From: a virus
Taxonomy: Duplodnaviria > Heunggongvirae > Uroviricota > Caudoviricetes
Reading direction: 5' to 3' (one strand)
IMG/VR virus record: IMGVR_UViG_2778261643_000010
DNA: 24,518 nt
In this document: piece after piece, positions 8,484-9,747 of the stretch
How the letters are laid out: each line of letters opens with the position of its first letter
How positions within the stretch are numbered: the first letter of the stretch is position 1
The notes under the pieces: generated by a model
Told to the model about the DNA's origin: nothing
The model's database searches: none
The model's input: only the letters and a program-made list of their open reading frames with translations
Made by a program: the position numbers and the translations under genes

Positions 8484-9747
8484 ATGAGCACTTCAGCACA
8501 AAACCAATCAATCGAAAATGTATCTATCCCTGATGTCCTGAATGCCGGTATCCCGGCCATTATCCAGAACATCCGGGCCGCGCAACGCCGCGTTAGTTGT
8601 GATGACCTCACAGCACGTTTTTTTTGATAATGCGGTTCAGTCAGCGGAGATGCTTCACGCACAGCTTATTGATGTTTATAACGCAGAAGCTGATAGCCAT
8701 AACTCCCTGGTAGATGCAGCTGAAAATATGCAGTTGGATCTCGGTCTGAAGGGTAAAGAAATTGAAGAGCTTCAGCTGCAAATTGAACATTTGAAACGCC
8801 AGCAACAGGACGCGATCGACGATGCGACGCATGACGCCAACCAGCGTGCTGATAATGCCGAACGTATAAGCATTGAGCTGGAAACAAAACTCAATGAAAT
8901 GACCGCGATGGTTGAACTGCGGAACTCACAGATTTCAACGCTAAAATCTCAATATAAAGAGATCATGAAACTTGATCCTTTTAACCTTGAGAAACGCTAT
9001 AACAAAGCTAAAAGCGAGCGACAGGAACTGCGTAAGCAGGTCGCCGACCTTAACCAACAGCTCAAAAAAACTATTAAAGATGCAAGCGAAGCGCGCGTGG
9101 CATTTGCTAATAAAAAAGCAGAGGTTACCGCGCTGGTTAATGAGAATGCCAAATTTGCGACGCTCAAGAAGGAAATGTATGGCATTACTGAGCGCCGTTT
9201 CCCTGCAAGCAAACTTCATCCGACGTTAGGGCAAATCTCCTTCTTCCCGCGCCTCCTGGCTTATGGGATCTCATCGCCTAAAGAGTTCAATAACGAGCGT
9301 CCTTATATCGTTTCTAAGCTGGACTTTGCTTATCAGTTCTGCTGCGACATGGGCTATGCCATTGATATCCGAATCAACGAATGGTTGATGCCAAACTTCC
9401 AGCCGTTGGCAATTTTCCGCGAGTTCCAGCCGGAAGGTTGGGTAGAGTTCTTCCATGAATTGATCTGTAAAGAGATGGAAAGCCGCCGCCCGGAACTGGT
9501 CCGTCGAGTTGAGTGGGCGCAAGAGGTTATGTTAGCAGATGCAGAGCTGCCGTTCGAACCGGAATTCATTGATGATCTGGCAACTAAAGGGCTGCATACC
9601 CTGTTTGATGTGGTTACCCGCCGTCATGAGCAGTTGGTTGTCGAATTGGGTTTAGAGGAAACTGCGGCAAGAAGACTTCTCGATGTTTGCTATGCACGTA
9701 GCGATGCATGGGAAAAAGAGAACGGCGGCACTATTTACGTTCGCTGA
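8484..9747 (+). pseudogene. Coiled-coil protein with a C-terminal globular domain, split by a +1 frameshift at a T8 tract (8618-8625): frame-0 ORF 8484-8627, frame-1 ORF 8542-9747
   Basis: A 47-codon ORF from ATG 8484 stops immediately after the T8 run. The 401-aa ORF continues in the next frame, and its own N-terminal 28 residues look out of frame and lack a ribosome-binding site. A T7 run would fuse the two. Confidence 0.45.

Follow-up and report, generated by a model that had tools for sequence, protein, structure and literature searches.

A probable heritable slippage insertion in a homopolymeric T run splits pmgS of a P1-like phage-plasmid

The pmgR-pmgS operon and its surroundings

The window analysed here is the whole 24,518-nt stretch of IMG/VR record IMGVR_UViG_2778261643_000010, and all coordinates refer to it unless another record is named. 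By its sequence, the locus at 8484-9747 is pmgS of a P1-like phage-plasmid (Punavirus): it is 99% identical in DNA to pmgS of P1 and of its relatives, P7, SJ46 and RCS47 among them. The window is collinear with P1 over the tail and baseplate genes 5, 6, 24, 7, 25 and 26 and over the stretch from pmgL to pmgQ, ppp, pmgR, pmgS and pap, with further collinear P1 genes (humD, phd/doc, pdcB, lpa and pacAB) later on, and all other P1 genes of at least 100 aa in the window are intact when ORF lengths are compared with the P1 annotation. The local gene order, ppp - pmgQ - pmgR - pmgS - pap, is that of P1. The P1 counterpart (P1_gp093, NC_005856 82452-83714) occupies the same place between pmgR and pap under the same C1-controlled promoter, but contains a run of seven T residues (T7) and a single 420-aa ORF, whereas the window has eight (T8) and a stop after codon 47. 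The features of the operon are as follows.

8184..8249, plus strand: promoter PpmgR with the C1-repressor operators OpmgRa and OpmgRb, control region of the pmgR-pmgS operon
8184-8200: C1 operator OpmgRa, transferred from the P1 annotation by alignment
8233-8249, minus strand: C1 operator OpmgRb, transferred from the P1 annotation by alignment
8264..8482, plus strand: pmgR, 72 aa, intact, identical in DNA to P1 pmgR
8484..8627, plus strand: 5′ part of pmgS, read in frame 0, comprising native codons 1-47 and then a premature TGA created by the extra T
8602..8604, plus strand: ATG in the +1 frame, candidate re-initiation codon, 23 nt 5′ of the premature stop
8618..8625, plus strand: T8 homopolymer, site of the +1 insertion, T7 being the normal state
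8626..9747, plus strand: 3′ part of pmgS, read in the +1 frame, with native codons 48-420 and the stop, otherwise undamaged
9767..9800, plus strand: hairpin of 11 pairs with a T7 run behind it, resembling an intrinsic terminator, at the end of the pmgR-pmgS unit and ahead of pap

PpmgR and both C1 operators are identical in sequence to those of P1, and only 1 nt separates the end of pmgR, reported to be essential (PMC9024508), from the pmgS ATG. Most of the loci carrying pmgS homologues of 53-71% identity show this gene order as well, pmgS being preceded by a metallophosphoesterase gene and an ORF of 72-73 aa and followed by a HAD_PNKP gene.

Between pap and hot/lxr the window contains an EcoR124-family type I restriction-modification cassette (10591-16638, minus strand), at a site where P1 carries pmgT, pmgU, pmgV and upfM-O instead. 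Remnants of R124/3 and EcoDXXI hsd-flanking sequence are annotated in P1 at the cassette borders. The cassette comprises three genes.

10591-13767, minus strand: hsdR
13829-15085, minus strand: hsdS
15082-16638, minus strand: hsdM

The interval of about 1.1 kb between hsdM and hot (16639-17780) contains no ORF of 100 aa or more.

A run of eight T residues splits pmgS into two frames

The earlier note, made from the letters alone, had described a gene divided by a T8 run, and the frames are indeed arranged in this way. The homopolymer occupies 8618-8625 within ...GCA CGT TTT TTT TGA TAA TGC..., and the frame-0 ORF beginning at ATG 8484 terminates directly after it, at TGA 8625-8627, having covered 47 codons, while the +1-frame ORF extends over 8542-9747 (401 aa). 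Removal of one T fuses the two into a 420-aa product, in line with the approximately 420 aa that had been predicted, and this product differs from P1 PmgS by a single residue change (S2 vs I2). Over its codons 1-28 the 401-aa ORF overlaps the frame-0 ORF, and the homologues agree there with the frame-0 reading, bearing out the suspicion that these 28 residues are out-of-frame translation. The 3′ segment shows zero substitutions against the T7 allele L038.

Along residues 1-420, the repaired protein matches positions 1-403 of the 405 in the profile of PHROG 1660 (“PmgS-like head morphogenesis”; E 1.1e-195), and it can be aligned over its whole length with homologues as distant as 27% identity. 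Those at 71%, 69%, 63%, 53% and 27% identity are each encoded by one ORF, 419-428 aa in length, and, down to the most distant, align from residue 1, none of them starting at the equivalent of 8542 or later, which had been the outcome to look for if the upstream ORF were not part of the gene. A family member is expected to have one uninterrupted ORF of about 420 aa, which the window allele lacks; since the gene is split at T8, it is a disrupted allele of a family member rather than an intact member.

T8 is the sole homopolymer of at least 8 nt in the 24.5-kb window, in which 0.5-1.3 T runs of this length or longer are expected from composition, so that the run alone is within chance. It becomes meaningful only because it falls at the frame switch of a conserved gene that has T7 in relatives.

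An ATG at 8602 in the +1 frame is the start picked by gene callers in public assemblies, and it may be used as such; the predicted product would be 381 aa long, with six aberrant residues ahead of native residues 46-420. Inspection of the sequence 5′ of this ATG revealed no Shine-Dalgarno element.

Predicted structure of PmgS

An AlphaFold model of the repaired protein (mf5af1a97961c, mean pLDDT 77) consists of four parts. Residues 15-34 form a short helix at the N-terminus, and two long helices follow (41-160 and 166-232), which together can be read as a coiled-coil hairpin. Next come a small alpha/beta domain (approximately 240-350) and a C-terminal helical bundle. Foldseek comparison of the model with PDB gave no match at E <= 0.001, and the search of BFVD yielded nothing useful. 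The only consistent PDB match was to the N-terminal helix-hairpin-helix domain of Rad51/RadA/RAD51C, on which the last 60 or so residues superpose with an rmsd of 1.6-2.0 Å at a weak E of about 0.07. In line with this C-terminal likeness, the homologue of 27% identity shows a weak match to PF14520. A DNA-associated role would be a guess. Coiled-coil matches to Pfam and NCBIfam profiles (TPR, SMC, Rad50) were sub-threshold, and those to PADLOC LmuB were weak; both were treated as composition-driven. Nothing experimental or structural supports the “head morphogenesis” or “morphogenetic” label attached to PmgS.

Seven T residues are the normal state

Tract length in the population was surveyed with exact-match queries of 78-80 nt against those E. 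coli complete-genome records that matched, 670 in number and almost exclusively plasmids. T7 was found in 614 of them (318 and 296 for the two synonymous flank variants), T6 in 16 and T8 in just one, off-length alleles thus making up about 2.5% of complete genomes; in another 39, extra SNPs or truncation placed the tract outside the exact-match queries, leaving its length unclassified. In PLSDB, T8 was present in 1 of 673 matching plasmids, and the A-variant pattern (CACAGCACG) was matched by 68 IMG/VR contigs, every one of them with T7. The same holds for phage P1 itself, and a span of T7 length is seen in 18 of 19 phage records, the exception, vB_EcoM-813R1, being two bases shorter. On the sequences surveyed, T7 in frame is both the majority and the ancestral state.

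T8 as an inherited allele

Homopolymers are classic error sites of 454, Ion Torrent and nanopore sequencing, and the earlier note had listed a sequencing error among the possible causes of the split; the true tract would then be T7, and the extra T a homopolymer miscall. The window was compared with its two closest relatives, the plasmid pSvP1_F from E. coli SvETEC and the ETEC1731 plasmid from pig faeces (Belgium). The alignment with pSvP1_F contains a single indel in 23 kb, namely the tract T, and three or four SNPs. The ETEC1731 plasmid has T8 as well, and differs from the window over 24.4 kb by three SNPs and an IS1203 insertion that breaks hsdR, without any indel. The ETEC1720 and ETEC6335 plasmids, also from pig faeces, read T7, although they apparently belong to the same sequencing project as ETEC1731, since the accession numbers are adjacent.

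Exact-sequence look-ups in a large assembly collection were then used to count the predicted products of each tract length, with the following results.

47-aa product, T8: 129 contigs, NCBI and Logan
381-aa downstream ORF, T8: 112 contigs, NCBI and Logan
401-aa downstream ORF, T8: 9 contigs, NCBI and Logan
420-aa intact product of the same haplotype, T7: at least 1000 contigs
75-aa product, T6: 24 contigs, NCBI only
76-aa product, T9: 0 contigs

At all six T8 loci that were fetched the tract indeed reads T8, and three of these show 100% identity with the window across 2.4-5.2 kb. Sources of the allele include GCA_900448605.1, Logan re-assemblies of SRR12505095, SRR6653461 and SRR12827410, and the complete ETEC1731 plasmid, and because identical T8 loci are found in both NCBI and Logan assemblies of separate runs, a one-off assembly error is excluded. 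From these other assemblies of the same haplotype we infer that T8 is likely to be uniform in the window's own source sample.

The miscall explanation retains some footing in the public data, in which RefSeq merely flags the gene as “frameshifted” and a minority of T8 assemblies (L087, L088, L089 and L097) also have indels in two other pmgS homopolymers, the A7 and A6 runs, so that a fraction of the public T8 calls may be homopolymer errors. For the allele in the window, which recurs across sources and is unaccompanied by other indels against its nearest relatives, an artefact appears very improbable, and the T8 tract is better regarded as inherited.

In a few public assemblies, these two A runs differ in length by one base. 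At the A7 run (9064-9070) and the A6 run (9112-9117), A8 was seen in L088, L089 and L097, A6 in L007 and A5 in L087; these differences may represent either further decay of broken copies or assembly errors.

The T8 allele was already on record, as a RefSeq pseudogene in the ETEC1731 plasmid (QDY29_RS26410, “hypothetical protein, frameshifted”, NZ_CP122822) and as split ORFs in older GenBank genomes (EHV82422/EHV82423, E. coli DEC7A). Both entries contain the identical allele and are followed downstream by an EcoR124-family hsd cassette, as in the window.

The other close relative, pSvP1_F (L004, NZ_MN510446), is a 139-kb record typed IncFIB/IncHI1B in which the P1-like element is embedded. IS91-family copies are located just 5′ of hot (at about window position 17784) and at the left boundary (about 1473), an arrangement suggestive of a cointegrate formed through IS91 between a P1-like plasmid and another replicon.

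Recurrent changes in tract length

The 47-aa product ending in ...ARFF was also found in four other N-terminal haplotypes, on 7, 5, 3 and 1 contigs, respectively. For two of these haplotypes the loci lie in P1-like backbones without the hsd cassette, which are 1-2% divergent from the window (91-141 substitutions and 0-1 indel over 8 kb). Within pmgS, these loci are separated by 1-8 substitutions from a T7 allele and by 7-14 from the window allele, and, because they are closer to T7 alleles than to that of the window, the change from T7 to T8 has taken place at least three times. Products of 46 aa, as predicted for T5, were found as well, and the single phage record with such a product is shorter by two bases across the region.

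The status of T6 is less secure. Its specific 75-aa product occurs in NCBI assemblies and is missing from Logan re-assemblies, which makes the T6 calls suspect and suggests that many of these “alleles” are long-read homopolymer under-calls. In complete genomes, T6 alleles such as that in NZ_CP019262.1 (L074 1403-2664) are annotated as frameshifted pseudogenes.

The recurrence of T5, T6 and T8 in P1-like plasmids supports the view of the tract as a mutational hot spot with mild hypermutability, and to this extent the suggestion of a slippage-prone site in the earlier note is upheld; adaptive phase variation, which was part of the same suggestion, does not follow from it and is considered below.

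The T run is an accident of codon choice rather than a recoding signal

The tract is spanned by the motif AQRRVxCDDLxxRFFDNA, the best-conserved part of the PmgS N-terminus. The R-F-F-D-N-A residues are kept in homologues, and in all four distant homologues examined the T run is broken by synonymous codons, the codons at the site being CGG TTC TTT, CGC TTC TTC, CGC TTC TTT and CGT TTT ATC. The run is thus a chance outcome of codon usage within the P1 lineage.

This bears directly on programmed recoding, another of the causes proposed earlier, according to which two products would be made in fixed ratio through a prfB-like +1 shift at UUU-UGA or through slippage of the mxiE or Thermus dnaX type. 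The prfB (RF2) gene undergoes a +1 programmed ribosomal frameshift at CUU UGA C, and UUU-UGA can be viewed as a “shifty stop” of the same kind, at which tRNA-Phe can slip +1 onto the overlapping UUU. The pmgS site resembles prfB in that the P-site tRNA re-pairs, here perfectly, in the +1 frame with a UGA stop in the A site. It differs in that the upstream sequence (CTCACAGCACG) contains no GGAGG-like element that could act as a Shine-Dalgarno-like stimulator, in that neither the slippery site nor the split into two ORFs is conserved in homologues, and in that the allele requiring a shift is the rare one. A -1 shift at the tract was discarded, as it would not restore the frame.

Programmed transcriptional slippage fares no better, despite the approximately 10% slippage of E. 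coli RNA polymerase on T8 (PMC6260861). As known from mxiE, Thermus dnaX and IS elements, it is characterized by a conserved A/T run, typically of at least 9 nt, lying at the junction between two conserved ORFs. The run in question is 8 nt long in the window and 7 nt in nearly all relatives, and is absent from distant homologues, and selection against A/T runs usually becomes apparent at 9 nt (PMC1088944).

A single RNA structure was seen next to the tract, in the arrangement known from stem-loop-stimulated slippage.

8590..8618, plus strand: RNA hairpin abutting the U run, -10.4 kcal/mol, 11 pairs, interrupted, terminator-like

Its folding is not significant (z -1.9, with 10 of 200 shuffles folding equally well), the count of terminator-like sites in the region is not above that in shuffles, and the hairpin and U run are also present in P1. 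As the helix-forming codons differ in homologues, we rejected it as an internal terminator or slippage stimulator, and it is probably incidental. Folding of the RNA 3′ of the tract is unremarkable (z +0.29), which leaves no stimulator of the -1 frameshift type, and the Rfam gathering scan of the whole window returned no match.

Overall, the two-ORF state is rare and derived, with P1 and more than 90% of relatives in frame, and neither the run nor the hairpin is conserved at the nucleotide level in homologues, which makes programmed recoding the least credible of the causes considered, with hardly any chance of being correct. We regard it as very probable that the split arose by a genuine, heritable +1 slippage insertion in an incidental homopolymer of pmgS, inactivating the gene in a tolerated fashion, and that the tract is a hot spot and not an evolved signal for recoding or switching.

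Does the tract serve as a switch?

In the contingency loci of Haemophilus, Neisseria and Campylobacter, a mononucleotide run in the 5′ part of an ORF switches the frame as its length changes. The pmgS run is likewise a mononucleotide run in the 5′ part of an ORF, and could be seen as a site of reversible phase variation, in which T7 and T8 (as well as T6 and T5) specify a low-frequency ON/OFF or high/low switch of PmgS, with OFF selected in some hosts. Length polymorphism among close strains, which is typical of such loci, is in fact observed, with T5, T6, T7 and T8 all represented, and with T7 (pSvP1_F, L038) and T8 (the window) on otherwise identical haplotypes of near-identical plasmids only some 0-3 SNPs apart. 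At least three backgrounds have acquired T8 independently, and the T8 lineage has spread to more than 100 assemblies. Selection for switching, and not mutation pressure alone, could lie behind this repeated appearance.

Other properties do not fit. The tracts of classical contingency loci are longer than the pmgS run, in which off-length variants amount to a few per cent; in complete E. coli genomes they are rare (T8 in 1 and T6 in 16 of 670 records), and many of the T6 calls may in addition be long-read errors, their product being seen only in NCBI assemblies. The tract is lost, rather than kept by selection, in homologues. PmgS does not have a surface or restriction-modification function, and there is no known phenotype for a switch to act on. 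Phase variation is thus an unlikely explanation. Its quantitative form, a low-rate reversible switch in which T7 would give full expression, T8 about 10% through transcriptional slippage, and T5 and T6 none, is equally doubtful. If this reading were nonetheless true, the spread of the recurrent off or low alleles in pig-associated E. coli would reflect selection against PmgS during long-term plasmid carriage.

Tolerance and leakiness of the T8 allele

In the slippage-insertion scenario that we favour, replication slippage in the CGT-TTT-TTT run would have converted T7 to T8, and translation from ATG 8484 would end at TGA 8625 after 47 residues, leaving 373 codons in the +1 frame. With these remaining codons out of frame, pmgS counts under conventional decoding as an inactivated gene, a pseudogene. 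Two properties make the lesion tolerable: P1 can grow lytically without pmgS, and the gene is the last one ahead of the terminator. Polarity should cost nothing, since the essential pmgR lies upstream and the terminator separates pmgS from pap. CRISPRi knock-down of pmgS in P1 gave an EOP of 1.2, classifying the gene as non-essential (PMC10695390), and its knock-down or deletion caused no plating or antirestriction defect (PMC10695390, PMC9024508). At the same time, pmgS is listed among the 21 “extremely conserved” genes of P1-like plasmids (PMC9603915), and some natural function is therefore likely; such conservation fits neutral loss a little oddly.

Inactivation need not be complete. In a poly(T8) reporter with one extra nucleotide, E. 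coli RNA polymerase restored about 10% of the in-frame control (PMC6260861), and by analogy the T8 allele is probably leaky. Deletion of a U by RNA polymerase on T8 could yield authentic full-length PmgS in a minority of cases, as could a +1 slip of tRNA-Phe at UUU-UGA. Ribosomes terminating at 8627 could also restart at ATG 8602 or 8650 and produce an N-terminally truncated protein. Full-length PmgS is predicted to release a tryptic peptide beginning after R45, FFDNAVQSAEMLHAQ. The closest parallels are with non-programmed slippage rescue in poly(T7/8) reporters (PMC6260861) and in tssM of Citrobacter rodentium (PMC4256274), where a frameshift lies in an A/T homopolymer long enough for RNA polymerase to bring a minority of transcripts back into frame. 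The pmgS run differs in being, at 8 nt, at the lower limit for such rescue, which is proposed here by analogy with those systems. On these grounds, the T8 allele is perhaps best seen as a strong hypomorph.

Implications

The finding itself is an ordinary one, of little import beyond annotation. The two ORFs are better annotated as one frameshifted pmgS than as two hypothetical proteins, and the suspect T6 calls in “complete” genomes provide a small caution for pseudogene counts. ETEC strains are the hosts of both complete plasmids nearest to the window, and one of these hosts came from pig faeces. The T8 allele is a natural marker for an E. coli lineage of P1-like plasmids with an EcoR124-type restriction system, in which it represents a natural knock-down of a conserved P1 gene.
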